From positions 598 to 64,597 of the forward strand of contig JACQUK010000112.1 in assembly GCA_016210325.1 (NCBI GenBank): a stretch of 64,000 nucleotides of DNA, written 5' to 3'. Below are positions 22,438 to 47,200 of this stretch, piece after piece. The notes under the pieces were generated by a model. The model did no database searches. It saw only the letters and a list, made by a program, of their open reading frames with translations, and was not told the DNA's origin. The translations under genes were made by a program, and so were the position numbers. Each line of letters starts with the position of its first letter. Positions within the stretch are counted from its first letter, which is position 1. Source of the DNA: Chloroflexota bacterium. GTDB taxonomy: Bacteria; Chloroflexota; Dehalococcoidia; Lucifugimonadales; HRBIN23.

Positions 22438-23031
22438 ATGCTAGAAAGAGCAACATGGTGTACATCGAGGATGGCTGTGGCTATCGCGGGACTGCGGCTC
22501 CGACAGGGCTCCGGCATTCCGGCGGACGCATGGTTCTATACCCTGGCCCTGGCGACTCTGGCACTGGACCAGGGGAGCAAGTACCTGGTCAGCGCCAGGC
22601 TAGCGCCGGGCGAGTCAATTCCTGCCCAGGGACTTGCCCGGATCACCTATGTATTTAATACGGGGAGCGCCTTCGGCTTTTTCCCGGGGCAGACGCTCTT
22701 CTTGACCTTCGCCTCCCTGATAGGAGTGGTGGTCCTGCTACTGTTCTACCGCAGCCATATCCTGCGCGAATGGCCGCTGCGCCTCAGCATCGCCCTGATG
22801 CTGGGCGGCGCGCTGGGCAACCTGGTGGACCGCGTCCGGCTGGGGTACGTGGTGGACTTCATTGACGTGGGCTGGTGGCCGGTGTTCAACTTGGCTGACT
22901 CATCCATCGTGATCGGCATCATGCTGCTGGCCTTTGTGTTCCTGACGGGGCAGGGGACTGGCCCTCGTGGAAGGCTTTCTCCACCACTGCCGCCCAGGGA
23001 TGGCCTGCCGCCCTCAGAGGTGGGGTGCTAG
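22438..23031 (+). CDS. lspA: Lipoprotein signal peptidase (signal peptidase II)
   Basis: NTGSAFGF, GGALGNLVDR and VVDFIDVGWWPVFNLADSSI. The true start may be an internal ATG (about 22471). Confidence 0.85.
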   Translation: MLERATWCTSRMAVAIAGLRLRQGSGIPADAWFYTLALATLALDQGSKYLVSARLAPGESIPAQGLARITYVFNTGSAFGFFPGQTLFLTFASLIGVVVLLLFYRSHILREWPLRLSIALMLGGALGNLVDRVRLGYVVDFIDVGWWPVFNLADSSIVIGIMLLAFVFLTGQGTGPRGRLSPPLPPRDGLPPSEVGC

Positions 23032-29928: not shown

Positions 29929-32900
29929 TTGTTGTGGAAAGTACTTAGCGCGAAAAGCCAGGTGACGCTGGGCCTCCTGGTGGCACTGAGTGTTGTCGGT
30001 GCGTTGCTTCTCCTGTCTCGCTCGGCACAGGCGTTGCGCCTCACCGTAGACAACCTGCCTGGCTCCGTCTCCAGCGGCAACCTTCTGGACTTCGACCTCA
30101 CGGCCGAGTTCGAGGCTGGCGACCTCGTCCCCTTCCAGGAGTTCCGTCTGGACATCCTGGGTCCTAGCCCCATCATTGCACGCTTCCGCTTCGATGGTAC
30201 GGTCCTGGTCAAAGACCCTGCTGTCGTCTCGATCACCAGTGTGCCGACGCCCTGTTTTACCTTTGGCTATGGGTACCGTTTCGCTCAGACACCGGACGAC
30301 AACGGTAACGGGAAGCCGCCCTTTGGGATACCTGGTGCTGGGGAGGACAACCTCCACAGGGAAAGCTTTGGCTACGGCTTTGGGTTTGGCTACGGCTATG
30401 GTTACGGGTATTCGCCGGTCCCACCGTGTTCGGTTAAGTTCCACGTGGTCGTAGACACCAGTGTAGGCCCGATGGAGCCGGGTGACTACGAGGTGCGTTT
30501 CAGTTGGGCTACAGGCATGCCCAACAAGCCCACGTTTGATGCTGCCCCTGGCCACTTTACTATTGTGGGTGGGGTCCTCACGGCCGATTTTGAAAACGTG
30601 CCTGACCGCGGGGTCGCGCCGCTGGACGTGCAGTTCACGGACAGGTCAGTGCCCGTGGGACAGATCACCGATTGGGCCTGGACCTTCTTCGAGGACCTCA
30701 ATGGCAACAACGTCCCCGATCCTGGCGAGGTCCTGGGCCTGAGCACTCTCCAGGACCCCCTGATGCACTTCGACCAGGGCGGCGACATTTCGGTCCGCCT
30801 GCGCGTCAGCAACGGGCCGGTCACTGACACCGTCATCCACATCAACGCTGTGCGTATCCTTGAACTGGCCGACATCCTGGCCAACGGTTCCAGCGCTCCC
30901 GTCACCGTGGCCGCTGGCGATACCGTCAACTTCACGGGCATCACCCGGGGCGCCGTCACCGCCTACTCCTGGGACCTAGACGGCGACGGGATTGCGGATA
31001 GCACTGATGCCAGCCCGTCCCATGTGTACACCCAGGCCGGCACCTATGACGTCAGCCTGAGAGTCCTTGGCTTCGATGGTGTGCTGACTGACACACTGGT
31101 GAAGGCTGGCTTCGTGAACGTCAACCCGGGCCAGCTTACCGAGGTCGTCGTTACGCCGCCGGCCGCGACAACTCAGGTAGCGGGCGCGGGAGTGCAGTTC
31201 AGCGCCCAAGCGCGCGACCAGTTTGGCAACGTGTTCCCGCCTGGTGTCCTGCCCCTGGCCTGGAGCCTTGACGAGGCAGACACTGGCGGGGCCGCTGTGG
31301 ACCAGACAGGGTTCTTTGCCCCGGGCACCGGGGCGCGAGTCCTCACGGTGCGGGCGACGGCAACCCAGAATGGCGTGGAGCGGTCCGGCACGGCCCGGGT
31401 CACTGTGGAGCCGGGGCCGCTGGACCGGGTGGATGTGACGCCGAATCCCGCCGTTGTGCCCGTGCAGGGCCAGCAGCAGTTTGCCGCCGCAGGCTTTGAC
31501 GCCTTCAACAACCCTATCCCTGGCCTGGCCTTCGCCTGGGAACTGGTGAACGGCCCGCCGGATGGGGCCCTGGACCAGAGCGGTCTCTTCACGGCCGGCA
31601 CTACGTCGGGGACCTTCAACAACACCGTCCAGGCAACGGCCACCTACAAGGGTTCCACAAGGTCCGGTGCCGCCACGGTGATTATCCCGGCGGGGCCGCT
31701 GTCCAGAGTGGTAGTGACACCCCCTGCCGCAGTGACTGAGGTAGCCGGAGCGCAGGTGCAGTTCACGGCCAGGGCTGAAGACGAGCTTGGCAACCCGCTG
31801 GACCTGCCTTTCTTCTGGGAGATTGTCGAGGCGGACCGGGGTGGTGCCAGCATAGACCAGGCTGGTAGGTTCACGCCGGGCACCGGGGCGCGAGTCCTCA
31901 CAGTGCGCGCGACGGCGACGCAGGATGGTGTGGTGCGGTCGGGCACGGCCCAGGTCACCGTGGAGCCGGGGCCGCTGGACCAGGTCACCGTAACCCCCGA
32001 CCCCGTGTCTCTGCGTATCAACGAACAGCGGCAGTTCGCCGCGGCCGGGTCCGATGCCTTTGGCAACCCTATACCTGGCCTGGCCTTCGCCTGGGCGCTA
32101 GTGAACGGCCCCCCTGATGGGTCGCTAGACCAGACTGGACTGTTCACGGCTGGCACGACGGTGGGGACCTTCAACAATACGGTCCGGGCTATGGCCACTT
32201 ACAAGGGGTCAACCAAGTCCGACGCTGCCACGGTGACCGTCCTGCCTGGGCCGCTGGACCACGTGGTGATTGACCCCAAGGTCAAGACACTACGGGTCCG
32301 GGAGACCCACCTGTTTACGGCGCAGGCCTTCGACCAGGCCAATAACCCCATCCAGGGGCTGGTGCCGCAGTGGACTGGCCTGGCTGGTGGCACGGTGGAC
32401 CAGAATGGGCTCTTCACCGCCGGCACAGTGGCGGGGACCTTCGACCCGGCCGTGCAGGTCTGCATGACCCAGAATGGGACCACGAAGTGCGACACCGCCA
32501 AGGTTGTCGTGCAGCCGGGCCCACTCGTCCAGGTAGTCGTCACCCCTGACCCTGGTGAGACCGATGTGCTTGGACAGATCCAGTTCTCAGCCCAGGGCAA
32601 GGACCAGTTTGGCAACGTCATCCAGGAGGGCCTAGCGCCCTTCCAGTGGTCCGTGGTGGGGAGCCCGGTACCGGGCACCATTGACGGGAACACTGGCCTG
32701 TTCACTGCCGGACAGGTGGCAGGCTTCTTCCTAGACGCCATCCGGGCCCAGACCCAGGGGGCGAGCGGGGGACCGGTGGCTGGAACCGCTGACGTGGTCA
32801 TCAGGGCAGGCCGGCTGACCACCCTGGATGTCATGCCCGATGACGCCATCGTGCCACTGCTTGGCACCAACCAGTTCGTGGCAGTGGCCCGTGACCAGTT

Positions 32901-35900
32901 CGGCAACCTGTTTGGGCCTGAACTGACCATCGTATGGGAGATCCTGGAGCCTGATAGCGACACTGTGCTACAGCCGGTGGAGCCAGGAAACCCACTGCTC
33001 CAGCAGTTCATGGTGGGGACCAAGGCAGGTACTGTCCACGTTCGGGCTACTGCCACCAAGGGTGCTGACGTCCTGTCTGACACCAGCACGGTGACCATAC
33101 CGCCGGACCCACTGGACGGAGTGGTCTTCGAGCCTGACCCACTAGCGGTGAGTGTGAACCAACAGGCGCAGGTGACCGGCAACCCCGTTGACCAGTACGG
33201 CAACGTGATCCCCGGCATCCCGGTCACCCTGTTTGGCGAGAACCTTCCATCTGACGGTATCTTCGACCCCGCGACGGGCATCTTCACCGCCGGTTCGCAG
33301 ATGGGCCTGTTCCCGAAGGCGTTCAAGGGTGAGGCGACGGAACACGGTTGGCGTGGCGCGCTACAGGGCGCGGCTGGCCTCAATGCCGTGTTCTTCACTG
33401 ACGCTTCCACAGGCTGGGCTGTGGGCAACGGCGGCCTCATCCTGCACACGGAGGACGGCGGCCGGAGCTGGGGTGTGCAGTCCAGCGGCACCACAGAAGA
33501 CCTGCATGGCGTCTCGTTTGCCAATGCCTCAGAGGGGCACGCCGTAGGCGCCAACGGCACCATCCTGACGACGGTGGACGGCGGCGAACGCTGGATGCCG
33601 CAGGCGCCTCCCGCTGGGATGGTGGACTCCTTCTTTGATGTGTTCTTCACTGACGCCTCCACCGGCGTCGCGGTGGGGACTAACGGCGCCATCATCACTA
33701 CCCAGGACGGTGGGGCCACCTGGCAGGCCCAGCAGAGCGGCGTGACGACAACGCTGCGGGGCGTCTACCTGACGGACTCCTCGACCGGCTACGCCGTGGG
33801 CGACAACGGGACCTTTGTGAAGACAACCCAGGGCGGCGCCGAATGGAAGCCTGAAGACTTGCCTGAGGGCATACCCGCCGACTCCTTCTTCGATGTCTTC
33901 TTCACCGATTCTTCGACCGGGTGGGTAGTAGGGGCCAACGGCGCCATCATCCACACCGAGGATGGTGGGGCCACCTGGCAGGCCCAGCAGAGCGGAGTGA
34001 ACGGGACGCTGCGGGGCGTGCACATGACCGATGCCTCCACCGGCTGGGCGGTGGGCGACAACGGGACGGTTCTGACGACTGTGAACGGTGGTGCCAATTG
34101 GACGCCAGAGGCGCCGCCGCCCGGTGTGGCTGCCGAATCGTTCTTCGATGTGTTCTTCACTGATGCCTCAACAGGCTGGGCCGTGGGCAGCCGGATCACC
34201 ATCATTGCCCGGGCCTCCCCGTGGGCCATCCAGCTCACGGCGATTGACCTGCGTGGTGCAGACTGCGTCAACGGGCTGATCTGCTGGGCCGTCGGCCTCA
34301 AGGGCCAGGCCCTCCACACCACGGACGGTGGCGTGAGCTTCTCGGCTCTGAACACGGGGACCGAAGATGACCTGCTGGCAGTGGACTTTGTGGACGCACA
34401 GCACGGTTGGGCTGTGGGCGCCAATGGGACAGTCCTTAAGGCCATTGATGGCGGCGCAACCTGGCAGCTTCAGGCCAGCAACACGGCCGTGACGCTGCGC
34501 GGGGTGAGCTTCGTGGACGCCCAGCGTGGCTGGGTTGTGGGCGAGGGTGGCACGGTCCTGGCCACGGCCGACGGCGGTGCGACTTGGGCGCCTCAGGGAA
34601 GCGGGATTGGCAGCCCGCTGAACGGTGTCTACTTTGTGGACGCTCAAAAGGGCTGGGTGGTTGGGGATGGCGGCGTCATCCTGGCGACGGCGAATGGTGG
34701 CAACACCTGGACAACGCAAGTCAGTGGCACGGGCCAGGCGCTGCGGGCGGTCCAGATGGTCTCTGCCACCAAGGGCTGGGCTGTGGGCGCCAGCGGCACG
34801 ATCTTGGCAACTGCCGATGGCGGCAGCAACTGGGCGGCCCAGGCCAGCGGCACAGTGGCAGGCCTCAACGACCTGTTCTTCCTGGATGACACTACAGGGT
34901 GGGCTGTGGGCACTGGTGGCACGGTGCTGCACACGGGCGATGGCCTGGCTTGGGCGGCGCAGGCCAGTGGCACCACAGCAGACCTCTACGCGGTGACCGG
35001 TGGCGGGCTGAGCCCGGCTGTGTACCTCTTCGCTTTTGGCGATAGCAGCACTGCGCTGCGGTATGGCCGCTTTGCCTGGGGCTATGGGGACCTGAGGGTT
35101 CTGGGCGAGTTGGCGCGGGTGGTGGTGACGCCGGCGGAGGCGACCACGGAGGCGGGTGGCGCGGCGGTCCAGTTCTCGGCGCAAGGCCAGGACGCGGGCG
35201 GCAACGTCTTGGACGTGCCCATCGTGTGGAGCATAGACGAGGCAGACGCTGGCGGGTCCCAAGTTGACCAGACTGGTCTGTTCACGCCGGGGACCAAGGC
35301 GGGGACGTACACCGTCCGGGCCACTGCTACCCAGGACGACATTGTGAAGTCCGGTACCGCCCGGGCCACGGTGAACCCGGGGCCGCTGGCCGAAGTGGTG
35401 GTAACGCCGGCGGAGGCAACCACGGAGGCGGGTGGCGCAGCGGTCCAGTTCTCGGCGCAGGCCAAGGACGCTTTTGGCAACGTTCTGGGTGTGCCTCTCG
35501 TCTGGAGCATTGACGAGGCGGACACCGGCGGAGCCAGCGTTGACCAGAACGGGCTGTTCACGCCAGGGGCGGGTGCCCGGGTGCTGACTGTGCGCGCTGA
35601 GGCGAGCCAGAACGGCATCGTCAGGTCTGGCACTGCCCAGGTGCGAGTGGAGCCGGGCCCGTTGGCCCGCGTGGACGTGACCCCCAACCCGGTCACGCTG
35701 CGGGTCCAGGGACAGCAGCAGTTCGGCGCAGCCGGTTTCGACGCTCTCAACAACCCGATACCGGGCCTGGCGTTTACTTGGCTGCTGGTGAATGGGCCGG
35801 CGGATGGGTCCTTGAGCGCGGCGGGGCTGTTGCATGCGGGGACCACCCCAGGGACGTTTACGAACACGGTGCAGGCGACGGCGACCTTCAAGGGTGCCAC

Positions 35901-38900
35901 AGTATCTGGTGCTGCCACGGTCAACGTGCTGGCGGGGCTGTTGAACCAGGTTGTGGTGACACCGGCAGAGGCGACCACGGAAGTCTCTGGCGCAACGGTC
36001 CAGTTCTCGGCGCAGGCCAGGGATGCCTTTGGTAATGCCATCAACCTACCCATTGCCTGGAGCATTGACGAAGCAGACGCTGGTGGGGCCAGCATTGGCC
36101 AGACTGGTCTATTCACGCCGGGGACGGGTGCTCGGCTGCTGACGGTGCGGGCCACGGCTGCTGAGGAGGGCCTGGTGCGGTCGGGCACGGCCCGAGTCAC
36201 GGTGGAACCGGGGGCTCTGAGGCAGGTGGTGGTGACGCCCAACCCGGCTAGTGTACCCACCTTGGGGCAGCAGCAGTTTGGGGCAGTGGGCTTCGACCGC
36301 TTTGGGAACCCGATTGCGGGGCTGGTCTTCGGCTGGGCGGTGGTGAATGGACCGCCCGATGGGTTTATTGACGGGGCGGGGCTGTTCCGCGGCGGCGTCA
36401 CCGCAGGCACTTTTGTGAACACGGTGCAGGCAACGGCCACCTTCAAGGGTGCAACGGTGTCCGGCTTTGCAACTGTGACCATCCTGCCTGGGCCGCTGGC
36501 GCGGGTGGTGGTAACGCCGGCGCAGGCGACGACGGAGGTGGGTGGCGCAGCGGTCCAGTTTGCTGCACGGGCCGAAGACGAGCACGGGAACGCCATCAAC
36601 CTACCCATCTCGTGGAGCATTGACGAGGCCGACCGGGGTGGGGCGGCTGTGGACCACGCTGGTCTGTTCACGCCGGGGACCAAGGCGGGGGCCTTCACCG
36701 TCCGCGCCGCCGCGTCGCAGGGTGGCGTGGAGCGGTCGGGGACGGCGCAGGTCACGGTGGAGCCGGGGCGGTTGGCGCGGGTGGTGGTGAGTCCGGACCC
36801 GGCGGCGGTTGCTCTTCAGGGGCAGCAGCAGTTTGCGGCGGCAGGCTTTGATGCCTTCAACAACGCCATCCCTGGCCTGGTATTTGGCTGGGCGCTGGTA
36901 AACGGGCCGGCGGACGGGTCCTTGAGTGGAGCGGGGCTGTTCCAGGCGGGGACGACGGCGGGGACCTTCGCGGGCACAGTGCAGGCGACGGCCACCTACA
37001 AGGGGGCCACGATTTCTGGGGTGGCGACGGTGACTGTGCTGCCTGGGCCGCTGGCGCGGGTGGTGGTGACGCCGGCGCAGGCGCCGGCAGAGGCTGGTGG
37101 CGCAGCGGTGCAGTTCACGGGGCGGGCTGAAGACGAGTATGGAAACGTTCTGAACCTGCCTATGTCTTGGAGCATTGACGAAGCGGACGCTGGCGGGGCC
37201 GGCATTGACCAGACTGGTCTGTTCACGCCGGGGACGGGCGCCCGAGTGCTGACAGTACGGGCTACGGCGACCCAGGGGAACGTGGTCCAGTCTGGGACGG
37301 CGCAGGTCACGGTGGAGCCCGGGCCACTGGCGCGGGTGGTGGTGAGTCCGGACCCGGCGGTAGTGGCCCTGGAGGGGCAGCAGCAGTTTGCGGCGGCAGG
37401 ATTTGATGCCTTCAACAACCCGATTGCGGGGCTGGCCTTTGGCTGGGCCTTGGTGAACGGGCCGGCGGACGGGTCCTTGAGTGGAACGGGGCTGTTCCAG
37501 GCGGGGACCACCCCGGGGACGTTCGCGGACACGGTGGAGGCGACGGCGACCTACAAGGGTGCCCCGGTGTCCGGGGCAGCCACAGTGATTGTGCCGGTGG
37601 GTGCGCTGGCGCGGGTGATCGTGACGCCGGCAGAGGCCACCACGGAGGTCGGCGGGGCGGCGGTCCAGTTCTCGGCACGAGTAGAAGACGACCTTGGGAA
37701 CGAGGTCCTGGGTGCCTTGGTAGTCTGGAGCATTGATGAGGCAGACCGTGGTGGGGCCCAGATTGACCAGACTGGTCTGTTCACGCCGGGGACGGGCGCT
37801 CGGGCACTGACGGTGCGGGCCACGGCGACCAAGGACAACTTGGCGGGGTCGGGGACGGCGCGGGTGACGGTGGAGCCTGGGCCGCTGGCGCGGGTGGTGG
37901 TGAGTCCGGACCCGGCGGTAGTGGCCCTGGAGGGGCAGCAGCAGTTTGCGGCGGCAGGATTTGACGCCTTCAACAACCCGATTGCGGGACTGGTGTTTGG
38001 CTGGGCGTTGGTGAACGGGCCGGCGGACGGGTCCTTGAGTGGAGCGGGGCTGTTCCAGGCTGGGACGACGGCGGGGACCTTTGCGGACACAGTGCAGGCG
38101 ACGGCGACGTACAAGGGTGCCCAGGTGTCCGGGGATGCCACCGTCACCGTCCTGACGAGTGCTCTAGCACGGGTGGTGGTGACGCCGTCGCAGGCGACGA
38201 CGGAGGTGGGTGGCGCAGCGGTGCAGTTCACGGGGCGGGCTGAAGACGAGCATGGGAACGTTCTGGGTCTGCCTATGTCTTGGAGCATTGACGAGGCCGA
38301 CCGGGGCGGAGCGAGCATAGACCAGACTGGTCTGTTCACGCCGGGGACGGGTGCCCGAGTGCTGACGGTGCGGGCGACGGCAACCCAGAACGGCGTGGAG
38401 CGGTCCGGGACGGCGCAGGTGACGGTGGAGCCTGGGCCGCTGGCACGGGTGGATGTGACGCCGAACCCGGCGGTAGTGGCCCTGGAGGGGCAGCAGCAGT
38501 TTGCGGCGGCAGGATTTGACGCCTTCAACAACCCGATTGCGGGGCTGGCCTTTGGCTGGGCCTTGGTGAACGGGCCGGCGGACGGGTCCTTGAGCGCAGC
38601 GGGGCTGTTCCAGGCGGGCACCACCCCGGGGACGTTCGCGGACACGGTACAGGCGGAGGCGACCTACAAGGGAGCCACGGTGTCCGGGGCTGCGACGGTG
38701 ATTGTGCCGGTGGGTGCGCTGGTGCGGGTGATCGTGACGCCGGCGCAGGCGACGACGGCGGTTGGTGGCGCTACCGTCCAGTTCTCGGGGCGGGCCGAGG
38801 ATGCCTTCGGTAACCTTCTGAACCTGGCCATGACGTGGACAATTGATGAGCCAGACACTGGCGGAGCGAGCATAGACCAGACTGGTCTGTTCACGCCGGG

Positions 38901-41900
38901 GACGGGCGCCCGAGTGCTGACGGTGCGAGCCTCGGTGACCCAGGGTGACGTAAGTCGGTCGGGGACGGCGCGGGCCACGGTGGAGCCGGGGCCGTTGGCG
39001 CAGGTGGTAGTGACGCCGAACCCGGCGACGGTGCCCATCCTTGGACAGCAGCAGTTTGCGGCGGCAGGATTTGATGCCTTCAACAACCCCATCCCTGGCC
39101 TGCCCTTTGGCTGGGACTTGGTGGACGGGCCGGCGGACGGGTCCTTGAGCCCAGCGGGCCTGTTCCAGGCTGGGACAACGGCGGGGACCTTTGTGGACAC
39201 CGTGAGGGCGACGGCGACCTACAAGGGTGCGACGGTCTCAGGTCGTGCGACCGTGAGCATCCCGGTCGGACCGCTGCATCGAGTGGTCGTGACACCGCCC
39301 GAAGGCGTCACACAGGTAGCCGGCGCGGCGGTCCAATTCTCGGCGCAGGTGCAGGATGCCTTCGGCAACGTGCTGGACCTGTCCATGGAGTGGAGCATTG
39401 ATGAGGCAAACACGGGCGGGGCCAGCATTGACCAGACAGGCAGGTTCACGCCAGGGACCAGGGCGGGGACCTTCACCGTGCGGGCCACGGCGGTCCAGGA
39501 CGGCTTGGCCTCTGGTACCGCGCTGGTGATGGTGCGGCCGGGGCCGCTGGCTGCTGTGACGATGTTCATCAACGAGGACCTCAACGGCAACGGCGCTCTG
39601 GACGCTGGCGAAGACTTGAACGGGAACGCTGCTCTGGACACGAGGCTGTCCTTAGACCCGGCTGTTGTGGACATGACTCAACAGGTCCGATTCTTCGCCG
39701 AGTCCACCGATGCCTTTGGCAACGTGAAGACCAACGGAGTGGCTTTGGCGTGGAACCTCACTGATGCCCGCGCCGGCACAGTGGACCAGAGTGGGCGTTT
39801 CGTGGCAGGCCTGGTGGCGGGGGCCTTCCCAGGCGTCGTCAGGGTGGGCGCTACTGAGGGTGCCCTGGGCGTGTCCGATACAAATGGTGTTACCGTGGTG
39901 ACGGCGGTGGTGGCCGTGCTACCGCAGAAGGACGGCTTCCAGGACACCGTCATTGAGGTGCCGGTCACGTTCATCAACGTGCCGGCCCCTGGCCTGGGGT
40001 CCTACCGTATCCGCGTCCGCATCACGGACCGCAACGTAGCCCGGCTGGCTGGCGTAAGCCAGGCAGATGTGCTGGTGCCCGGCGATGCGCCCTTCACGAG
40101 CTTTGGCACGTTCATCGTGCTGGATGACCATACGGTTGACTTCGGTGGCAGCATCCCTGGCCCTGTGGGACCCACCGGGACAGTCCGCGTCGCGTCGGTC
40201 CGTATCAGGATGGCCGGTGCCCCTGGGAGCGGGACCGCTGTGGTAGTGTTCGATGTGATGGCCAACGATGCTCAGGGTGGGGCCACCACTGTCTTGCGGG
40301 CCGACGGGCACCTCACCGTCGCCACGGCGGACTTCGCTGCGGCCCCGGCTCCGGCCAAGGGCCAGGCACCGCTGGATGTGCAGTTGACCGACCATAGCAC
40401 CGGAAACCCCTACGCTTGGGGCTGGAGCATTTACCAGGACAACGGCGATGAGTTGTTCAACGCCGCTTCGGACGTGCTGCTGAAGTGGACGAAGGCGGGT
40501 GATACTTGGGTCGAGGACGCGGCCGGTGTCACCAGTATTCCGGACCAGAACCCCAAGGTGCGCTTCGGGCGTGGCGGTGACTTCCACGTGGCCCTGACGG
40601 TAACGATTGACCCCAGCACCACCACGGTCGTGAAGCCGCTGCTGGTCAGGACGCTGCTGCCGAGCTTCACGCTGGCGCCTAGCCTTGGCACTGCACCGCT
40701 GGGAGTCCAGATTACGGATAGCACCCAGGGCACGGTGAGTGGCTGGGACTACGAGATCTACCGCGAGGCCACCGGCAACAACTCCCTGGACATCGGCGGC
40801 GACACGCTGGTGGCTTGGGGCAAGGTGGACACCGACAGTAATGGCACGCCTGACACATGGGTCGAAGGCGCTGGCGCTGTGACCAGCATCCCGGAGCGGA
40901 ATCCGAGGGTGCGGTTCGACAAGGGCGGCATCTACCACGTTCGGTCGGTGGTGACTGGACCGGCAGGTACTTTTGCCACCACCCATCAGGCGGCGGTCAC
41001 GGTGCTCCGGGCCGACTTCTCGGCGGCGCTAGCCGCTGGGCAGGCTGGCACCGTTGACCCAGCCACGGGTCGCGTCGAGGGGGTCCTGACGCGCGATGAC
41101 CCAGAGTTCGACGTGCAGTTCACCCAGCGGGCCGAGGGGCCAGCAGTGGCCTATGCCTGGGACTTCAATTTGCAGCCCAGTGAGCTGGACGCCGGTGGCA
41201 GCTACATCGGCAGCTTCGATAGCAGTGACCCGAACCCGACCTACCCCTACACCTCGGCGGGCAGCTACACCGTGCTGCTGCGGGTCACGGGTGGTGGGCT
41301 TGATGACAGGGAGATCAAGGCGGGCATTGTCCTGGTGCACCAGGCGCCGTTGGCGGACTTCACCAATGACCCGGCAACACCGCCGCGAGGCCAGGCGCCG
41401 CTGACGGTGCAACTGCAAGACCTGTCCCAGGGCGACAACCCCAGGGCCTTCGACTACGAGGTCCGTCTGGACGATGGCGATGGGGCCCTCGATGCTGCCC
41501 AGGACACGCTGCTCACGTGGAGCAAGGTTGACACCAACAGCGACGGCACTCCTGACACCTGGGTCGAGGACGCCGCGGGCGTTACCAGCATCCCCGACCA
41601 GGACCCCAGGGTCCGGTTCGACCGGGGCGGTGACTTCCACGTGACGCAGATGGTGACCAACGCCTTCGGTGTCGACTCGGTGGTGCGGGCCCTGTTCGTC
41701 CGGGTGCTCAAGATTAACTTCAGTGGCACGGACTTCGAGGACAAGGTGGCGTACGCCCTGCCGGCGAGCCCGCTCCAGCTCATTATCCCCAGCCAGGATG
41801 ATCCGAACACACTGGCCGTCGTTGAGAACCGCGTCCAGTTCGCAGGGGTCATCTCAGGCACGGTCACCAGCGTCGCCTGGGACCTGAACGGCGACGGGGT

Positions 41901-44169
41901 CACTGATAGCGTGGCGCTGAACCCGACGTGGGACTACACGGTTCCGGGTAGGGTCAACGTGTCCCTGACGGTCACTGGGCCCGCCGGCGTCTTCACGGTG
42001 GTAGGGCGCGGCGAGGACTTCAATAACAACGGTGTGTTGGACCCGGGCGAGGACCAGAACGGGGACGGCGTCCTGGACCGGGGCTTCGTTGTGGTGGCCG
42101 CGCAGCCGGTCGCCGACTTCGATACCAGCGAAGACCTGAACGGGAACGGAGTGCTGGATGCCGGCGAGGACGTCAACGGCAATGGCGAGCTGGACGCCGA
42201 GACCGGTCTGGGCAATGTGACCGCGGCACCGCTGGTGGCCCGCCTGCGCGACCTCTCGTCGGGCGACCCCACCCGCTGGGAGTGGCGTATCTACGAGGAT
42301 GTGAACGGCAACGAGGCCTTCGATGAGGGTGTGGACACCCTCCTGACGTGGACCAAGGTGGGCGATACGTGGCAGGAGGACCCGGCGGGCGCCCAGATTA
42401 TCACCGACCGGCACCCCAAGGTGCGCGTCAACCGCGGCGGTGACTTCCACGTGAGCCTGCGCGTCTTCCGCGCCTTCAGTCCGTTAGAATTTGGTTCAGA
42501 GATATTGACGCGCGAGGTCATCATCCGTACCATCAGGGCAAGCTTCACGGCGGACCCGCTGGATGGGCTGGCGCCGCTGAGCGTAGACTTCGATGACACC
42601 TCCTCCGAGGGCAAGATTGACCTGGTCTCCTGGGACTTTGATGTTACAGCAGGGGAGTTGGATGCCCAAGGAAACTACATCGGCGTCTTCGAGACGACGG
42701 GCTCCAATCCTACCCGCATCTACCAGCGGGCTGGGACGAAGACCGTGGTGATGAAGGTGGTCGGCCCTGCCGGCGAGGCCTTCCTGATATTGCATGACTT
42801 GATCACCGTCAGGGAGCAGGCCGTAGCTGGGTTCACGCTGGCTGACGGCTACACGCCGGACGGCGCGGCGCCCCACATGGTGCAGCTCCAGGATGCCTCT
42901 CAGGGCCACCCGTCTCGCTGGGAGTACCGGGTGTACCGCGACAACGGCGACAGCGTGTACCAGAGCGACTTGGACACCGAGCTCAAGTGGACCTATGCCG
43001 ACACCGATGGTGATGGCATAGCGGAGACGTGGGTGTACGACTCCAGCGGACGGCCGGACATCCCTGACCAGGGCCCCAGAATCCGGTTCGACGAGGGCGG
43101 CACGTTCCACATCACGCAGGTGGTGCAGAACAACAACAACACCTCTGACCCCTTCGTGCGGCAGGACTTCATCCATGTGCTGCGGGTCGTCCTGGCCACC
43201 AACCCGGGCTATGACGTCAACCGAGAGATTGTCATTGACCCCCATACCCTGGTGGACTTCGACGCCAGGGCGTCGGAGGGCAACATCATCCAGGTGAGCT
43301 GGGCCTTCGAGAACCGCGACCGCAACGGCAACGGCGTGCTGGACCCGGACGAGCGGGTGTTCACGGAGACCGCGGCGGTGCCGCCGGACGACAACCTGCG
43401 CCGGCAGCACACGTACCACGCCCTGGGCACCTTCTTTGCCACTGTCCGCATCACCGATGGGACCATGGTGGACCGGTTCACGGTGAAGGTGATTGTGGCG
43501 GAGCAGCCAGACGCGGCCTTCGCCATCATCAATCCTCCAGGTGGGACCTGGGGGGCGACGCCAGCAGCCAATGGCGACCCGCTGAGGCTGATGCTCCAGG
43601 ACACGTCCTCAGGCGGCCCGACGCAGCGCCGGTTCACGGTGACCAACCTGGACCTGCCCGAGGGTGATCAGGACAGGGTGCAAGTCCGCGATGCCTCGTT
43701 CGACCAGGGGAACGGCAGGTGGATCGCGGTGTTTGACCTGCCGCGGGGTGGTAGGTACAGCGTGCGCCTGGACGTCAGCAACGCCCGCGGTGTGGACAAT
43801 GCTGCGCTGGCGGACCCGCTGGAGGTCATACGTGCTGCCTTCGAGGCCCTGAACGGTCGTACAGGCGTGACCTCCGATGTAGGCAAGCCGGGGGCGAGCG
43901 GCAATCCGCACGTCCTGGTGGTGAGGGCTGGCGACCGGGTGGACTTCACCTCCAGCACCGTGGCGGAGATGGGGAGCACCATCAACCGGGTGTACTGGTA
44001 CTTTGTGTGGCCGGAGCGGAGCTCCGCCAGGCGCTCCAGCAACGATGACCCGTCATACACCTACGCGGCTGGCGACCTGACGGGCGGCCCGAAGAAGGTC
44101 CGGCTTATTGCAGTGGGCGATGGCGGCTCGACGGATGTGTACATGGTGATCGAGGTGGAGCAGCCATAA
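29929..44169 (+). CDS. Giant secreted multidomain surface protein 1 (4746 aa): signal peptide, PKD, 25 Big_2-type Ig domains, double BNR/Ycf48-like propeller, EF-hand-like loops, cohesin-like module, PKD-like module array
   Basis: Single ORF in the track with a TTG start after GGGAG. Signal peptide LGLLVALSVVGALLLLSRSAQA. The domain motifs are listed in the sub-features. Confidence 0.9.
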   Translation: MLWKVLSAKSQVTLGLLVALSVVGALLLLSRSAQALRLTVDNLPGSVSSGNLLDFDLTAEFEAGDLVPFQEFRLDILGPSPIIARFRFDGTVLVKDPAVVSITSVPTPCFTFGYGYRFAQTPDDNGNGKPPFGIPGAGEDNLHRESFGYGFGFGYGYGYGYSPVPPCSVKFHVVVDTSVGPMEPGDYEVRFSWATGMPNKPTFDAAPGHFTIVGGVLTADFENVPDRGVAPLDVQFTDRSVPVGQITDWAWTFFEDLNGNNVPDPGEVLGLSTLQDPLMHFDQGGDISVRLRVSNGPVTDTVIHINAVRILELADILANGSSAPVTVAAGDTVNFTGITRGAVTAYSWDLDGDGIADSTDASPSHVYTQAGTYDVSLRVLGFDGVLTDTLVKAGFVNVNPGQLTEVVVTPPAATTQVAGAGVQFSAQARDQFGNVFPPGVLPLAWSLDEADTGGAAVDQTGFFAPGTGARVLTVRATATQNGVERSGTARVTVEPGPLDRVDVTPNPAVVPVQGQQQFAAAGFDAFNNPIPGLAFAWELVNGPPDGALDQSGLFTAGTTSGTFNNTVQATATYKGSTRSGAATVIIPAGPLSRVVVTPPAAVTEVAGAQVQFTARAEDELGNPLDLPFFWEIVEADRGGASIDQAGRFTPGTGARVLTVRATATQDGVVRSGTAQVTVEPGPLDQVTVTPDPVSLRINEQRQFAAAGSDAFGNPIPGLAFAWALVNGPPDGSLDQTGLFTAGTTVGTFNNTVRAMATYKGSTKSDAATVTVLPGPLDHVVIDPKVKTLRVRETHLFTAQAFDQANNPIQGLVPQWTGLAGGTVDQNGLFTAGTVAGTFDPAVQVCMTQNGTTKCDTAKVVVQPGPLVQVVVTPDPGETDVLGQIQFSAQGKDQFGNVIQEGLAPFQWSVVGSPVPGTIDGNTGLFTAGQVAGFFLDAIRAQTQGASGGPVAGTADVVIRAGRLTTLDVMPDDAIVPLLGTNQFVAVARDQFGNLFGPELTIVWEILEPDSDTVLQPVEPGNPLLQQFMVGTKAGTVHVRATATKGADVLSDTSTVTIPPDPLDGVVFEPDPLAVSVNQQAQVTGNPVDQYGNVIPGIPVTLFGENLPSDGIFDPATGIFTAGSQMGLFPKAFKGEATEHGWRGALQGAAGLNAVFFTDASTGWAVGNGGLILHTEDGGRSWGVQSSGTTEDLHGVSFANASEGHAVGANGTILTTVDGGERWMPQAPPAGMVDSFFDVFFTDASTGVAVGTNGAIITTQDGGATWQAQQSGVTTTLRGVYLTDSSTGYAVGDNGTFVKTTQGGAEWKPEDLPEGIPADSFFDVFFTDSSTGWVVGANGAIIHTEDGGATWQAQQSGVNGTLRGVHMTDASTGWAVGDNGTVLTTVNGGANWTPEAPPPGVAAESFFDVFFTDASTGWAVGSRITIIARASPWAIQLTAIDLRGADCVNGLICWAVGLKGQALHTTDGGVSFSALNTGTEDDLLAVDFVDAQHGWAVGANGTVLKAIDGGATWQLQASNTAVTLRGVSFVDAQRGWVVGEGGTVLATADGGATWAPQGSGIGSPLNGVYFVDAQKGWVVGDGGVILATANGGNTWTTQVSGTGQALRAVQMVSATKGWAVGASGTILATADGGSNWAAQASGTVAGLNDLFFLDDTTGWAVGTGGTVLHTGDGLAWAAQASGTTADLYAVTGGGLSPAVYLFAFGDSSTALRYGRFAWGYGDLRVLGELARVVVTPAEATTEAGGAAVQFSAQGQDAGGNVLDVPIVWSIDEADAGGSQVDQTGLFTPGTKAGTYTVRATATQDDIVKSGTARATVNPGPLAEVVVTPAEATTEAGGAAVQFSAQAKDAFGNVLGVPLVWSIDEADTGGASVDQNGLFTPGAGARVLTVRAEASQNGIVRSGTAQVRVEPGPLARVDVTPNPVTLRVQGQQQFGAAGFDALNNPIPGLAFTWLLVNGPADGSLSAAGLLHAGTTPGTFTNTVQATATFKGATVSGAATVNVLAGLLNQVVVTPAEATTEVSGATVQFSAQARDAFGNAINLPIAWSIDEADAGGASIGQTGLFTPGTGARLLTVRATAAEEGLVRSGTARVTVEPGALRQVVVTPNPASVPTLGQQQFGAVGFDRFGNPIAGLVFGWAVVNGPPDGFIDGAGLFRGGVTAGTFVNTVQATATFKGATVSGFATVTILPGPLARVVVTPAQATTEVGGAAVQFAARAEDEHGNAINLPISWSIDEADRGGAAVDHAGLFTPGTKAGAFTVRAAASQGGVERSGTAQVTVEPGRLARVVVSPDPAAVALQGQQQFAAAGFDAFNNAIPGLVFGWALVNGPADGSLSGAGLFQAGTTAGTFAGTVQATATYKGATISGVATVTVLPGPLARVVVTPAQAPAEAGGAAVQFTGRAEDEYGNVLNLPMSWSIDEADAGGAGIDQTGLFTPGTGARVLTVRATATQGNVVQSGTAQVTVEPGPLARVVVSPDPAVVALEGQQQFAAAGFDAFNNPIAGLAFGWALVNGPADGSLSGTGLFQAGTTPGTFADTVEATATYKGAPVSGAATVIVPVGALARVIVTPAEATTEVGGAAVQFSARVEDDLGNEVLGALVVWSIDEADRGGAQIDQTGLFTPGTGARALTVRATATKDNLAGSGTARVTVEPGPLARVVVSPDPAVVALEGQQQFAAAGFDAFNNPIAGLVFGWALVNGPADGSLSGAGLFQAGTTAGTFADTVQATATYKGAQVSGDATVTVLTSALARVVVTPSQATTEVGGAAVQFTGRAEDEHGNVLGLPMSWSIDEADRGGASIDQTGLFTPGTGARVLTVRATATQNGVERSGTAQVTVEPGPLARVDVTPNPAVVALEGQQQFAAAGFDAFNNPIAGLAFGWALVNGPADGSLSAAGLFQAGTTPGTFADTVQAEATYKGATVSGAATVIVPVGALVRVIVTPAQATTAVGGATVQFSGRAEDAFGNLLNLAMTWTIDEPDTGGASIDQTGLFTPGTGARVLTVRASVTQGDVSRSGTARATVEPGPLAQVVVTPNPATVPILGQQQFAAAGFDAFNNPIPGLPFGWDLVDGPADGSLSPAGLFQAGTTAGTFVDTVRATATYKGATVSGRATVSIPVGPLHRVVVTPPEGVTQVAGAAVQFSAQVQDAFGNVLDLSMEWSIDEANTGGASIDQTGRFTPGTRAGTFTVRATAVQDGLASGTALVMVRPGPLAAVTMFINEDLNGNGALDAGEDLNGNAALDTRLSLDPAVVDMTQQVRFFAESTDAFGNVKTNGVALAWNLTDARAGTVDQSGRFVAGLVAGAFPGVVRVGATEGALGVSDTNGVTVVTAVVAVLPQKDGFQDTVIEVPVTFINVPAPGLGSYRIRVRITDRNVARLAGVSQADVLVPGDAPFTSFGTFIVLDDHTVDFGGSIPGPVGPTGTVRVASVRIRMAGAPGSGTAVVVFDVMANDAQGGATTVLRADGHLTVATADFAAAPAPAKGQAPLDVQLTDHSTGNPYAWGWSIYQDNGDELFNAASDVLLKWTKAGDTWVEDAAGVTSIPDQNPKVRFGRGGDFHVALTVTIDPSTTTVVKPLLVRTLLPSFTLAPSLGTAPLGVQITDSTQGTVSGWDYEIYREATGNNSLDIGGDTLVAWGKVDTDSNGTPDTWVEGAGAVTSIPERNPRVRFDKGGIYHVRSVVTGPAGTFATTHQAAVTVLRADFSAALAAGQAGTVDPATGRVEGVLTRDDPEFDVQFTQRAEGPAVAYAWDFNLQPSELDAGGSYIGSFDSSDPNPTYPYTSAGSYTVLLRVTGGGLDDREIKAGIVLVHQAPLADFTNDPATPPRGQAPLTVQLQDLSQGDNPRAFDYEVRLDDGDGALDAAQDTLLTWSKVDTNSDGTPDTWVEDAAGVTSIPDQDPRVRFDRGGDFHVTQMVTNAFGVDSVVRALFVRVLKINFSGTDFEDKVAYALPASPLQLIIPSQDDPNTLAVVENRVQFAGVISGTVTSVAWDLNGDGVTDSVALNPTWDYTVPGRVNVSLTVTGPAGVFTVVGRGEDFNNNGVLDPGEDQNGDGVLDRGFVVVAAQPVADFDTSEDLNGNGVLDAGEDVNGNGELDAETGLGNVTAAPLVARLRDLSSGDPTRWEWRIYEDVNGNEAFDEGVDTLLTWTKVGDTWQEDPAGAQIITDRHPKVRVNRGGDFHVSLRVFRAFSPLEFGSEILTREVIIRTIRASFTADPLDGLAPLSVDFDDTSSEGKIDLVSWDFDVTAGELDAQGNYIGVFETTGSNPTRIYQRAGTKTVVMKVVGPAGEAFLILHDLITVREQAVAGFTLADGYTPDGAAPHMVQLQDASQGHPSRWEYRVYRDNGDSVYQSDLDTELKWTYADTDGDGIAETWVYDSSGRPDIPDQGPRIRFDEGGTFHITQVVQNNNNTSDPFVRQDFIHVLRVVLATNPGYDVNREIVIDPHTLVDFDARASEGNIIQVSWAFENRDRNGNGVLDPDERVFTETAAVPPDDNLRRQHTYHALGTFFATVRITDGTMVDRFTVKVIVAEQPDAAFAIINPPGGTWGATPAANGDPLRLMLQDTSSGGPTQRRFTVTNLDLPEGDQDRVQVRDASFDQGNGRWIAVFDLPRGGRYSVRLDVSNARGVDNAALADPLEVIRAAFEALNGRTGVTSDVGKPGASGNPHVLVVRAGDRVDFTSSTVAEMGSTINRVYWYFVWPERSSARRSSNDDPSYTYAAGDLTGGPKKVRLIAVGDGGSTDVYMVIEVEQP
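31130..33340 (+). other. Array I of about 8 Big_2-type bacterial Ig-like domains (protein 1)
   Basis: Repeated V(V/T)VTP.P....V.G...QF.A.A.D.FGN ... G.FTAG...G.......A .. G..SG.A.V.V units. Confidence 0.65.
33355..35070 (+). other. Two consecutive BNR/Ycf48(PSII_BNR)-like beta-propellers, 13-14 blades (protein 1)
   Basis: 13 recurrences of the blade motif, e.g. TEDGGRSWGVQ, QDGGATWQAQQSG, IDGGATWQLQ, ADGGSNWAAQ. Each is followed by L.GV.F.D...GWAVG..GT(I/V)L.T. Confidence 0.7.
35090..39540 (+). repeat. Array II: 16 Big_2-type domains in alternating A/B types, coded by near-identical tandem DNA repeats (A+B pair period about 555-560 nt)
   Basis: Type A is VVVTPA(E/Q)ATTEVGGAAVQF...WSIDEAD.GGA. 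Type B is VVV(S/T)P(D/N)PAVVALEGQQQFAAAGFDAFNNPIAGL.FGWALVNGPADGSLS. Long, almost identical nucleotide blocks occur at about 37321, 37871 and 38431. Confidence 0.85.
39577..39648 (+). other. Paired EF-hand-like Ca-binding loops (DLNGNGALDAGE-DLNGNAALDTRL)
   Basis: The first 12-residue loop fits the canonical EF-hand loop positions 1,3,5,6,8,9,12 (D-x-N-x-N-G-x-L-D-x-x-E). Similar pairs occur at 42016-42087 and about 42127-42200 (protein 1), about 46811-46890 (protein 2), and about 53848-53915 and about 59140-59212 (protein 3). Confidence 0.6.
39905..40320 (+). other. Cohesin-like beta-sandwich module (tentative)
   Basis: VVAVLPQKDGFQDTVIEVPVTFINVPAPGLGSYRIRVRITDRNVARLAGV...GTVRVASVRIRMAGAPGSGTAVVVFDV resembles the cohesin pattern. 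That pattern has a selected element giving V.VPV.., an identity-like I.yD stretch, and a tail G.la.i.f.v. The call is from memory only. Confidence 0.3.
40320..44166 (+). other. Array of PKD-like modules, several carrying a conserved acidic insertion (protein 1 C-terminal third)
   Basis: Recurring ADF...G.APL.VQL.D.S.G.P..W.W.IY.D.NG......D.LL.W.K...(D.DG.PD)TWVEDAAGVTSIPDQ.P.VRF.RGGDFHV. Canonical PKD units (WD.NGDG..DS....P...Y...G.Y.V.L.V) are interspersed. Confidence 0.6.
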
Positions 44170-44205: not shown

Positions 44206-47200
44206 ATGCGCTTTTCGTCGAAGGGAGCAGCCCCTGACTGGCATCTGAAACTCGTGCTGGCGGCCCTCCTGGTAGTGGGAGGGCTGCTGGCCGTTTCAGG
44301 GGCAGTCCTCGCCATCGCTCCGGTGGCTGATTTCATCAACGACCCGGCCACGCCGCGCCTTGGGGCCTTCCCGGCGCAGGGTACGTTCGATGTTAGCCTG
44401 CTGGACACCTCGGACAATGCCCCTACCTCCTGGGACTGGCGTGTCTATCTGGACAATGGCGATGGGGTCCTGAACGACGCCGATGGGGATGGCACGCCGG
44501 ACCCTGGCACTGACACAGCGGTAACGTGGCGCCTGGATGGCGCCAGCTTCGTACAGGACGCAGCGGGGGCCATTACCGTCATCCAGGGCAACACCGATAC
44601 TGAGCGGGACCCGTTCCTGAGCTTCAGCCGCGGTGGCGACTACCACGTGCGGCTGGTGGCCACCGGGGATGGCTCCTCGCCTCCGAAGGTCCAGAACAAC
44701 TTCATCCGCATCCTCCGGACAGCTTTTGCGGCGAACAGCAACGACGCTGGCGCCACGTGCAGCAACGTCTCCACCACCTCGGGCGCCACCTGCGACGGCA
44801 CCTCGGTGCCCTTCACGGTGTCCTTTGTCGGTACGTCAGAGGGGACAATCACCGCCAGGGCCTGGGACTTCAACGGCGACGGTGTCGTGGACTCCAACGT
44901 CCAGGCCCCGGCCCCGTTCGTCTACGCGGAGCCGGGCACCTTCACCGTCACCGAGACAACCAGCGGACCCGCGGGCACCCACACAGCCCGGCTGACCGTC
45001 CGGGTGTTCCAGATCCCCAGCGCCTCCTTTAGCGGGACGCCCAGGTCCGGCGTGGTGAACGCCCAGGGACAGTTCACCGTCAACTTCGTGGACGAGTCCA
45101 CGGGTAACCCTTCCCGCTGGGTCTGGGACTTCGGCGACGGCTCCAGTCTAAATACCCAGGACCCCGCACAGCGAAACCCGTCCCACGTCTACCAGCGCGG
45201 TGGCGTGTTCACGGCCACCCTGACGGTTAGCAACCCCACCCTGCCCAACGGTGACACGGAGGCGAAGGCGGACTATGTCCGCGCCCTCCAGGCGGACTTT
45301 GGCACCCGGCCAGGCGCCGGACAACCTGTGACGTTTGCCGCTATCACCAGGACCATCCCACCGGGCCAAGTCTGCTCTACCGGGCAGGCGGGCGCCGATG
45401 TGATTTTCGTTGACCAGAGCCTGGGGAGGCCGGCTGCGGGGGTCCAGTGGGACTGGGATTTTGGGGATGGCAGTGGACTTATCACCAACGTGGAGGCCCA
45501 GGGGCTGGAGCCGACCCACTGCTACACCAGCAGCGGGACCTTCAATGCCACGCTGAGGCTTTCCACGGGCATTGGCACCCATGCAAAGGCCCGCGCTGGG
45601 CTGGTGACGGTGGCCAAGACCCCGCTGGCGGAGTTCCTGGCAGCGCCCACCAGCGGGGGAGTGCTCACCCGAGTGCTGGCCAACGGCGCCACCGAGGTCA
45701 CCCCGGTCCAGATCGCCCTGGTAGACCAGTCCGCCAACGTGCCAACGGGCTGGTCGTGGCGCATCTACGTAGACGGCAACGCTGACCAGGTGCTGAACGA
45801 CGCCGACGGGGATGGGGTGCCAGATGCGGGTACAGACACGCTGGTGACCTGGCGGCAGGACGGCAACACCTTTGTCCAAGACGTGGCTGGGGCCATCAGC
45901 GCGGTTGCGGGCACCACCGACACCGAGCGCAACCCGGTGCTGAAGTTCAACCGGGGCGGCGGCTATCACGTACGTCTGGTGGCTTCCAACCTGGCAGGCG
46001 CTTCAGCGCCCAGGGTGCGGAACCGGTACATCCGCGTCCTGAGGTCGGACTTTGAGGCCCGCTCTGCGGGAGGGGCCTTTGGAACGGCCCCGCTGACGGT
46101 CAACGTTGGGGCTACGGTTGACTTCCGGATCACCACCGAGGGGACCGTGACCTCCCGGGAGTGGGATGTCAACAACGATGGGATCACGGATGGCACCGGC
46201 ACGGCCCTAAGCTTCCAGTACGGGACCGGCGGGACCTTCACGGTGGTGTTTCGCTCCATCGGCCCGGCTGGCACCAGCCAGATGGTGCGGGAAGGATTTG
46301 TCATTGCTCGTCCCCCGCCAACGGCTGACTTCATGGCCAACCCTCTGACACCGGCGCGGCGCCCCTTTGAAACGGGCTTAATGATTGAGGGCAAGCCTGC
46401 CGTGGGCCTGGTGGATCTCTCCACCGAGGCCCCTGACCGCTGGCAGTGGACGGTCTATGAGGACACCAATAGCAACGGTGTGTTGGACGAGGGCGCGGAT
46501 ACTGTCGTGCGGTGGACGCAGGCGGGGGCCAACTTCACGCAGGACCCTCAGGGCGCCCTTGGCGCCATCGAGGGGACCGACGCCAACGTCTACCAGAACC
46601 CCATCCTGCTGTTCGGCCGCGGCGGCGACTACCACGTGAAGCTGGTGGCCAGTAACGTGGTAGGTGCGTCTCAGCCCAGGCCGCGCCCTCTCTTCGTGCG
46701 CATCATCAAGGCCCAGTTTGCTGCCTTGAGCAACACCGCAGGGGCCCAGTGTCCCGCTGTGGACGGCTCTTGCCGTGGAGGCGTCCCCCTCGTCGTCCGC
46801 TTCATTGCCAACGAGGATGCCAACGGGAACAAACTCCTTGACGCTGGCGAGGACCTGAACGCCAACGGGGCGCTGGATGTGCTGGCGGAGGGCACAGTCA
46901 CCAGCTATGCGTGGGACCTGAACGGTGATGGTCTAACCGACAGCACCGCTGCGAACCCGACCTTCAACTACACGACGCCCAGTAACTTCAATGTTACGTT
47001 GCGAGTGACTGGCCCCGCCGGCAGCAGCACCGTGCTCAAGCAGGCGCTGGTCAGGACCTTCCAGCCGGTCGCGGCGGACCTCTCGGGCACGCCCAGGGCG
47101 GTGGCTTCAGGGAACACCGTGCAGTTCACTGACCTCAGCGTGGGCAACCCCGACACCTGGCAGTGGGCCTTCTTCCAGGACGAGGACGGGGATGGCGTGC

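Follow-up and report, generated by a model that had tools for sequence, protein, structure and literature searches.

The window, a 64,000-nucleotide stretch of DNA from a Chloroflexota bacterium (contig JACQUK010000112.1), carries three giant co-oriented open reading frames (ORFs) on the plus strand, P1, P2 and P3, which contain six copies of a short cassette of two calcium-type loops and, in P1, a single cohesin module. The initial annotation of this sequence proposed that module and cassettes might assemble the three proteins in the manner of cohesins and dockerins. The reading favoured here, to which we give a probability of roughly 70%, is that the module is a divergent non-cellulosomal cohesin whose dockerin is probably encoded elsewhere, and that the cassettes are structural calcium-loop inserts of their host domains and not its partners. 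With this locus the known class of non-cellulosomal cohesins gains a further, divergent member, and new examples of a common calcium-loop insert are added. The three proteins and the module have the following positions.

29929-44169, plus strand: P1, a giant, predicted exported multidomain protein of 4746 amino acids (ORF call).
44206-49326, plus strand: P2, 1706 amino acids, with PKD and PKD-variant domains, a Pro/Thr linker and a C-terminal transmembrane anchor.
49718-64000, plus strand: P3, more than 4760 amino acids, with an ATG start and open at the window end.
39898-40335, plus strand: cohesin module, P1 residues 3324-3469 (146 residues), with a core at residues 3336-3466 aligned to the hidden Markov model (HMM).

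As judged from sequence comparison and from a predicted structure, the module is a true but divergent non-cellulosomal cohesin. It aligns with the Pfam Cohesin profile (PF00963) over positions 4-135 of 139 (18.5 bits, E-value 0.0024), and a phmmer search of the PDB places cohesin-2 of C. thermocellum CipA at the top (entries 2ccl, 1anu and 1ohz, E-value of about 8e-4). Searched exhaustively with phmmer, 1.84 billion representative proteins yield P1 itself and seven other proteins, five of which pass the Pfam Cohesin cut-off with scores of 33.7-443.8 bits; two of the relatives, P0002 and P0007, are cohesin-PKD proteins. The module shares 17-28% identity with its nearest sequence relatives, and a word-indexed homologue search with it gives no matches. 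A cohesin HMM built from the relatives, with the module left out, has a single six-frame match in the window, which is the module (E-value 2.6e-14), and a profile made of the module and five non-clostridial relatives (A3) finds PDB cohesins at E-values of 5e-7 to 1e-5. The module-free HMM and the non-clostridial profile replace an earlier profile search that was partly circular, its alignment having contained clostridial cohesins.

The AlphaFold2 model of the module, computed from an alignment designated A1, is all-beta with 10 strands (predicted local distance difference test (pLDDT) score of 81.6, predicted template modelling (TM) score of 0.75). A Foldseek comparison of this model with the PDB yields cohesins for all of the top 50 matches, and not PKD or Ig domains, with a probability of 1.00 and TM scores of 0.77-0.81. 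The best match is the non-cellulosomal cohesin of A. fulgidus, 2xdh (TM 0.77/0.81, 14% identity), and two motifs of the non-cellulosomal subgroup, VPxPGLG and PGDxPFG, are kept in the module. The cohesin-like fold called in the initial annotation is therefore borne out by the Pfam alignment, the PDB phmmer search, the relatives, the HMMs and the AlphaFold2 and Foldseek results. The module shares its fold and its length of about 140-150 amino acids with non-cellulosomal cohesins such as 2xdh, as well as their occurrence in a non-cellulolytic organism and in a multidomain surface protein with PKD domains. It differs from them in its low identity to 2xdh and in being present as a single copy in a protein of 4746 amino acids: exactly one cohesin is found among more than 80 beta-sandwich domains, and it is the only one in the window. 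This class of cohesins has reportedly been surveyed by Peer et al. in 2009 (FEMS Microbiol Lett 291:1).

In P1 the module is flanked in line by an Ig-like array on one side and by a PKD array on the other. A single domain separates it from the first cassette:

39643-39918, plus strand: Ig-like repeat of about 90 amino acids that separates cassette 1 from the cohesin and is the final member of the long P1 array (paralogue alignment).

One intervening domain had been expected at this place and an Ig-like one is indeed present; the Big_2 type then assigned to it is unconfirmed by Pfam, in which the repeat has neither a family nor a Big_2 match. A PDB sequence search with the two paralogous repeats just upstream (P1 residues 3018-3205) likewise returns nothing significant.

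In characterised systems a cohesin, a beta-sandwich of the nine-strand type, binds a dockerin. The P1 module would accordingly recruit a canonical dockerin protein, with two loops and a helix after each, and this partner is probably encoded elsewhere in the genome, P1 serving as a putative surface scaffold. A precedent is provided by P0008, a two-cohesin protein that is a close relative of the module and the weakest of the seven matches by whole-protein score. Its gene lies directly downstream of one for a Peripla_BP_2 substrate-binding protein, whose C-terminus is a canonical dockerin of loop-helix, loop-helix organization, 'DANIDDVVSIRD-AQWIAKYDVGLL ... DVSGDERVTITD-AMLVAKFIVGLI', scoring 32.7 bits with Dockerin_1. 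This arrangement looks like a cohesin-dockerin pair that tethers the binding protein of a transporter. The pair (L123:4104-6629) sits in a cluster of FecCD/ABC-transporter and CobN genes. None of the seven module homologues, of which five are cohesin proteins, carries a cassette, and no cassette occurs in the loci of three cohesin relatives. The known range of non-cellulosomal cohesins is widened by this true, highly divergent member in a giant Chloroflexota surface protein, and its presence suggests that proteins tagged with dockerins may be gathered on P1 as a scaffold, in a phylum that has received little study.

Each of the six cassettes consists of two consecutive 12-residue loops of the form D-x-N-G-N-G-x-L-D-x-G-E, 24 residues in all.

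39577-39648, plus strand: cassette 1, P1 residues 3217-3240, DLNGNGALDAGE-DLNGNAALDTRL; carried by an Ig-like repeat as a 28-residue insertion on its N-terminal edge (five paralogous repeats compared).
42016-42087, plus strand: cassette 2, P1 residues 4030-4053, DFNNNGVLDPGE-DQNGDGVLDRGF; an insertion that interrupts the last beta-hairpin of a PKD domain.
42133-42204, plus strand: cassette 3, P1 residues 4069-4092, DLNGNGVLDAGE-DVNGNGELDAET; inserted near the N-terminus of a PKD-variant domain.
46816-46887, plus strand: cassette 4, P2 residues 871-894, DANGNKLLDAGE-DLNANGALDVLA; 24 residues inserted into the first inter-strand loop of a PKD domain.
53849-53920, plus strand: cassette 5, P3 residues 1382-1405, DTNGNEALDPGE-DTNGNGQLDRGD; inserted within the turn of a beta-helix's N-terminal cap (IQDAVNAALPG-[insert]-DTVMV).
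59144-59215, plus strand: cassette 6, P3 residues 3147-3170, DLNGNGVLDDGE-DTNGNGALDQRN; in the turn between two beta-helix rungs.

All six had been located to within a few bases in the initial annotation. A two-loop regular expression applied to P1-P3 recovers these 6 copies, as against 0 in each of 300 residue shuffles, and a 12-residue EF-loop pattern has 9 matches compared with a shuffle mean of 0.17. The first loop is usually preceded by a glutamate, as in E-DLNGNGVLDAGE-DVNGNGELDAET. Comparison with paralogous domains of the same window shows that all six cassettes are clean insertions of 24-28 residues. The host of cassette 4 is a PKD_4 domain (47.1 bits). Cassette 5 falls between the two halves, IQxAxxxAxPG and DTVxV, of a cap turn motif; a paralogous cap at P3 residue 1730 has no insert, and a Beta_helix match follows downstream. 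Similarly, the rung adjacent to cassette 6 is free of any insert, and Beta_helix and NosD matches lie downstream of the insertion. At the DNA level the cassettes share pairwise nucleotide identities of 56-78% and are therefore not recent copies of one another; recent DNA-level copying was rejected, third-position identity being no higher than codon bias gives. A reading of cassettes 2 and 3, 39 amino acids apart, as one dockerin-like pair was also rejected, as a strand and a domain boundary (RGFVVVAAQPVADF) lie between them.

Three further loops of related type stand singly.

42298-42333, plus strand: unpaired acidic loop, DVNGNEAFDEGV, that belongs to the PKD-variant domain itself and is conserved in all eight paralogues.
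43318-43353, plus strand: unpaired EF-type loop, DRNGNGVLDPDE, located where a PKD domain has its WDxxGDG motif.
51203-51238, plus strand: unpaired EF-type loop, DTNGNRVVDEAE, with a helix-like stretch after it, in a P3 domain with a Cys/His pair.

The P3 domain that holds the last of these has no Pfam or PDB sequence match.

The six cassettes are not dockerins. A dockerin is defined by two EF-hand-like motifs with flanking helices, arranged as loop-helix-helix-loop-helix and forming a symmetrical cohesin-binding surface (PMC12484212). Each cassette does contain two EF-hand-like loops; helices, a match to the Pfam profile and the character of an autonomous module are all lacking. The absence of flanking helices, already pointed out in the initial annotation, follows from the 12-residue period, which leaves no room for a helix after each loop, and a low-confidence AlphaFold2 model of P1 residues 3962-4200 is free of helices in both cassette 2 and cassette 3. 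Compared with a type I dockerin (PF00404), the cassettes have the same pair of adjacent 12-residue D/N/G-rich calcium-type loops in an extracellular setting. However, their loops are spaced 12 residues from start to start rather than about 34 as in the L123 dockerin, and they are helix-free elements of 24 residues within other domains, whereas a dockerin is a free terminal module of about 60-70 residues.

Profile searches agree with this assignment. The best Dockerin_1 score is 11.5 bits (E-value 0.37, loop positions 3-12 only), obtained on one cassette and to be compared with a gathering score of 22.9, and no Dockerin_1 match is listed for the six cassettes scanned with their flanks. The positive control, the dockerin adjoining the related cohesin, is matched with 32.7 bits over profile positions 2-56 of 57. 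With these scores, the lack of helices, the insertion in other domains and the absence of cohesins from cassette loci described below, the dockerin-style interpretation of the loops is not upheld, and cassettes of this kind should not be annotated as dockerins. The likeness to thrombospondin type-3 repeats (DxDxDGxxDxxD, with paired cysteines) that had also been suggested finds no support in Pfam, TSP_3 (PF02412) giving no match to the cassettes at E-values up to 10, and the cassettes contain no cysteine.

The individual loops were compared with the 12-residue consensus of the EF-hand (PF00036 / PF13202), defined as D at position 1, D, N or S at position 3, one of D, E, N, S, T or G at position 5, a G-type residue at position 6, a hydrophobic residue at position 8 and an acidic one at position 12. 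Five of the six first loops conform to it, as had been noted for most of them, but only one of the six second loops; the first loop of the cassette designated P3a has E at position 6. The full PROSITE pattern PS00018 is passed by no loop. It requires a hydrophobic residue at position 13, the start of the exiting helix, and this position is occupied here by D1 of the next loop or by a residue of the host domain. Of the HMM scans proposed in the initial annotation, those for Cohesin and EF-hand give matches below threshold: that to Cohesin is nearly full length, and that to EF-hand_5 (at best 19.4 bits against a threshold of 25.9) is confined to loop positions.

Beyond this locus, the cassette is a widespread and promiscuous insertion motif of extracytoplasmic proteins. 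An exact, degenerate DNA pattern that encodes NGNGxLDxGEDxNGNG, run against metagenome contigs of JGI/ENA, finds it in at least 120 loci (L003-L122; for example L010:4784-5280, L046 and L052) of marine, soil, freshwater, sediment and gut origin. Arrays of exactly two loops make up 86 of the 129 among the matches listed, the others reaching up to ten loops. The metagenomic hosts were scanned with Pfam as 130 cassette contexts with 160 amino acids on either side; the hosts among the matches listed include Omp85, LptD, Peptidase_S8, Beta_helix, PilY1, pilin N-methyl proteins, SdrD_B, Invasin and a transporter. Cohesin and Dockerin are not among the families that most of the 130 listed contexts match, and the cohesin HMM has no match in 915 kb of cassette loci, so that none of the at least 120 loci encodes a cohesin.

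Current families cover the cassette only in part. DUF7151 (PF23657), a family without known function, matches 12 of the 130 contexts among the matches listed, in longer arrays, with E-values as low as 1e-8, and is the best or near-best Pfam match of all six cassettes of the window, at about positions 23-38 of 46. The window cassettes nevertheless score only 12.6-20.5 bits against a gathering threshold of 27.2 and cover the model partly. A word-indexed homologue search with the cassette consensus returns four short fragments only, and a full-text literature search found no paper describing the cassette motif or DUF7151.

The most likely function of the cassettes, in our analysis, is structural calcium binding. 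Each is a pair of EF-hand-type, Dx[DN]xDG-like calcium loops without flanking helices, set in a surface loop or turn of its host domain, and would bind one or two Ca2+ ions. Two loops placed back to back would bring the chain back to its point of entry, and the folded cassette would be a rigid acidic knob, stabilised by calcium, through which the host domain is stiffened or protected in the extracellular space. The proposal agrees with the documented behaviour of Dx[DN]xDG loops, which occur in many unrelated folds and also as calcium-binding insertions (Rigden et al. 2011, PMC3123361). Such loops bind Ca2+ in at least 12 unrelated structural contexts, can be grafted between strands and have been assigned a proposed structural or folding role; an example of an irregular insertion is the 25-residue, four-calcium insert of Tk-subtilisin (PMC3123361). 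The cassettes resemble these loops in being short, acidic, D/N/G-rich stand-alone elements of unrelated folds in exported proteins, and their length is similar to that of the Thermococcus kodakaraensis subtilisin insert (about 24-25 residues; PMC3123361). They differ in that position 5 is nearly always N, the strict motif occurring once among the 12 loops and Dx[DN]x[DN]G nine times, and in forming a fixed tandem pair with a G-E-D junction that recurs in many unrelated hosts. Were calcium binding to be true, the cassette would be a small, naturally occurring calcium site of plug-in type that protein engineering might exploit.

A second point of comparison is offered by thrombospondin type-3 or COMP-like repeats, including the N-terminal region of Myxococcus CglD, whose DxDxDG region has been described as COMP/thrombospondin-like and calcium-related (bioRxiv 10.1101/2023.10.19.562135). 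These are likewise tandem, helix-free, acidic calcium loops of extracellular proteins, and NCBIfam reports a weak, local similarity of the cassette regions to the DxDxDG region of CglD (E-values of 0.015-0.06). In contrast to such repeats, the cassettes have no Cys pairs, keep a period of exactly 12 and usually comprise two loops rather than long arrays.

The alternative in which the cassettes are minimal, helix-less equivalents of dockerins, binding the single P1 cohesin through calcium and so joining P1, P2 and P3 non-covalently, appears very improbable to us. It would account for the presence of a real cohesin and of paired EF-type loops together in three adjacent co-oriented genes, it agrees with the resemblance of loop positions 1, 3, 4, 5, 6 and 8 to those of dockerin loops and with the weak, loop-only Dockerin_1 match of one cassette (11.5 bits, E-value 0.37), and it would supply a partner to a cohesin that has none in sight in the window. 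Yet the cassettes are helix-free and 24 amino acids long, compared with about 60-70 amino acids with helices in dockerins (PMC12484212); Dockerin_1, which gives the positive control 32.7 bits, fails on all six; and they are inserted in loops of host domains instead of forming free modules. Moreover, a cohesin is found in none of the at least 120 cassette loci and a cassette in 0 of 7 module relatives, while a close relative of the module adjoins a gene with a canonical dockerin. A broader version, in which the cassette is a portable, helix-less, calcium-dependent docking tag read by the P1 cohesin or by some other receptor domain, strikes us as a long shot; if it were true, giant surface proteins would be cross-linked in a calcium-dependent lattice, a second and minimal solution of the cohesin-dockerin type. 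As structural inserts, on the reading preferred here, the cassettes would share the locus with the cohesin because both elements are common in large surface proteins, and not because they are partners. A role of the cassettes in calcium-dependent adhesion, as acidic Ca2+-bridged patches that contact polysaccharide, mineral surfaces or another surface protein, is quite unlikely. Such patches would resemble the COMP/thrombospondin-like DxDxDG region that is proposed to underlie the calcium-dependent function of Myxococcus CglD. In CglD, to which the NCBIfam matches (E-values of 0.015-0.06) point, the DxDxDG motif is dodeca-repeating, and both Ca2+ and CglD are needed for gliding over a rigid substratum (bioRxiv 10.1101/2023.10.19.562135); the cassettes also project from surface loops, and their hosts elsewhere include proteins of adhesin or pilus type (PilY1, pilins, SdrD_B and Invasin). 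However, the CglD matches lie far under threshold (11-13 bits against 400), the present data point to no ligand, and hosts that also comprise outer-membrane barrels, proteases and a transporter are better explained by a generic structural role than by one shared ligand.

For the module alone, a further possibility is that it serves as a partnerless spacer of cohesin fold within the Ig-like/PKD stalk. Its in-line position between the Ig-like and PKD arrays fits this idea, as do its strong divergence (17-28% identity to relatives and a score under the Pfam gathering score), the lack of a visible dockerin in 64 kb and the existence of two related cohesin-PKD proteins with no dockerin gene nearby. 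We regard it as unlikely, since a module present only once among more than 80 beta-sandwich domains hints at a dedicated role and not at a filler, the non-cellulosomal motifs VPxPGLG and PGDxPFG are kept, and a related cohesin has a dockerin protein as its paired neighbour.

Several observations weigh against the combination of a cohesin with a distant dockerin and structural calcium loops. On the side of the module, its Pfam Cohesin score taken alone (18.5 bits) is under the gathering cut-off of 24.1 bits, which is an operational threshold and not a biological feature, and alignment A1 held bona fide cohesins that may bias the model toward the cohesin fold, a bias that does not affect the evidence from sequence. 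Pfam, a phmmer search with the L123 dockerin and a geometry-based regular expression reveal no canonical dockerin in the window, whether in P1, P2, the visible part of P3 or the 20 upstream genes scanned, and of the three relatives whose genomic context was available, the two besides P0008 lack a nearby dockerin. The lack of cohesins near cassettes elsewhere may leave room for a lineage-specific interaction at this locus. On the side of the cassettes, the model of cassettes 2 and 3 has a low pLDDT of about 46-59, and no solved structure in the PDB contains the cassette, the only weak match being an engineered calcium-loop Z domain (6fgo). Two-ion binding in particular is called into question by an acidic residue at position 12 in only one of the six second loops and by the absence of Gly at position 6 from 3 of the 12 loops, so that occupancy may be one Ca2+ per cassette instead of two.

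P1, P2 and P3 would be giant exported multidomain proteins of the cell surface, and the N-terminus of each, as read from the sequence, has a hydrophobic segment resembling a signal or an anchor. P1 corresponds to NCBI MBI4337678.1 ('PKD domain-containing protein', from a 78-kb contig of a Chloroflexota metagenome-assembled genome (MAG)), the sole difference being that the TTG start is read as M. Its Pfam content comprises PKD domains and Ycf48/BNR-like propeller repeats, the latter forming a propeller at window positions 33349-35037 (P1 residues 1141-1703, approximately; Pfam PSII_BNR, 7 stretches, 174.9 bits) that sits mid-way in the Ig-like repeat array. This long array spans window positions 31000-39900 (residues 400-3300, approximately) and is built of Ig-like repeats of about 92 amino acids and of two alternating types, 'VVVTPAEATTEVGGAAVQF...' and 'VxVTPNPAVVALEGQQQF...', with no Pfam assignment at E-values of 0.01 or below. 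A Gly/Tyr/Phe run, FGYGFGFGYGYGYGY, is found close to the N-terminus of P1 (window positions 30367-30411, residues 147-161).

Seven PKD stretches are detected by Pfam in P2. The C-terminus of this protein (window positions 48979-49308) consists of an 86-residue Pro/Thr-rich linker, a 24-residue hydrophobic helix and the sequence RRRGA, and resembles a membrane anchor. The PKD-variant domain, of about 110-140 amino acids, occurs in eight copies in P1 and P2 together (window positions 40321-43179 and 44320-46704) and is marked by a conserved internal acidic loop, Y-x-D-x-N-G-x4-D-x3-D-T-x-x-x-W, and by a 'GGDFHV' motif; in a MAFFT alignment, ordinary PKD domains align onto it with the loop region as an insertion. 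P3 contains PKD, TIG and NHL/beta-propeller domains and many right-handed beta-helix regions. Its residues 475-598 (window positions 51128-51499) carry 'NWCGPTS' and 'GGGHWLVG', with a Cys/His pair reminiscent of the core of papain-like or C39-like peptidases; a papain-like identity for this region was dropped, as neither Pfam nor PDB sequence comparison supports it.

A scan of GTDB genomes finds distant beta-helix relatives only, in an Actinomycetes MAG and a Caldilineaceae MAG, where cassettes and cohesins are absent. A word-indexed homologue search with the C-terminal part of P3 gives no match, P3 itself included. The window has a G+C content of 65%, and many long antisense ORFs (up to 896 amino acids) overlie the three giant genes on the minus strand at positions 30486-63949; they are an expected artefact of high G+C and are not treated as genes. 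The 20 upstream genes scanned have housekeeping or envelope-lipid functions. Among the upstream features is a cluster at positions 19142-23031 that encodes a myo-inositol-1-phosphate synthase, a GT4 glycosyltransferase and a CDP-alcohol phosphatidyltransferase, with signal peptidase II (lspA) next in line. The cluster points to production of an inositol-containing lipid or solute by genes immediately upstream of those for the surface proteins.

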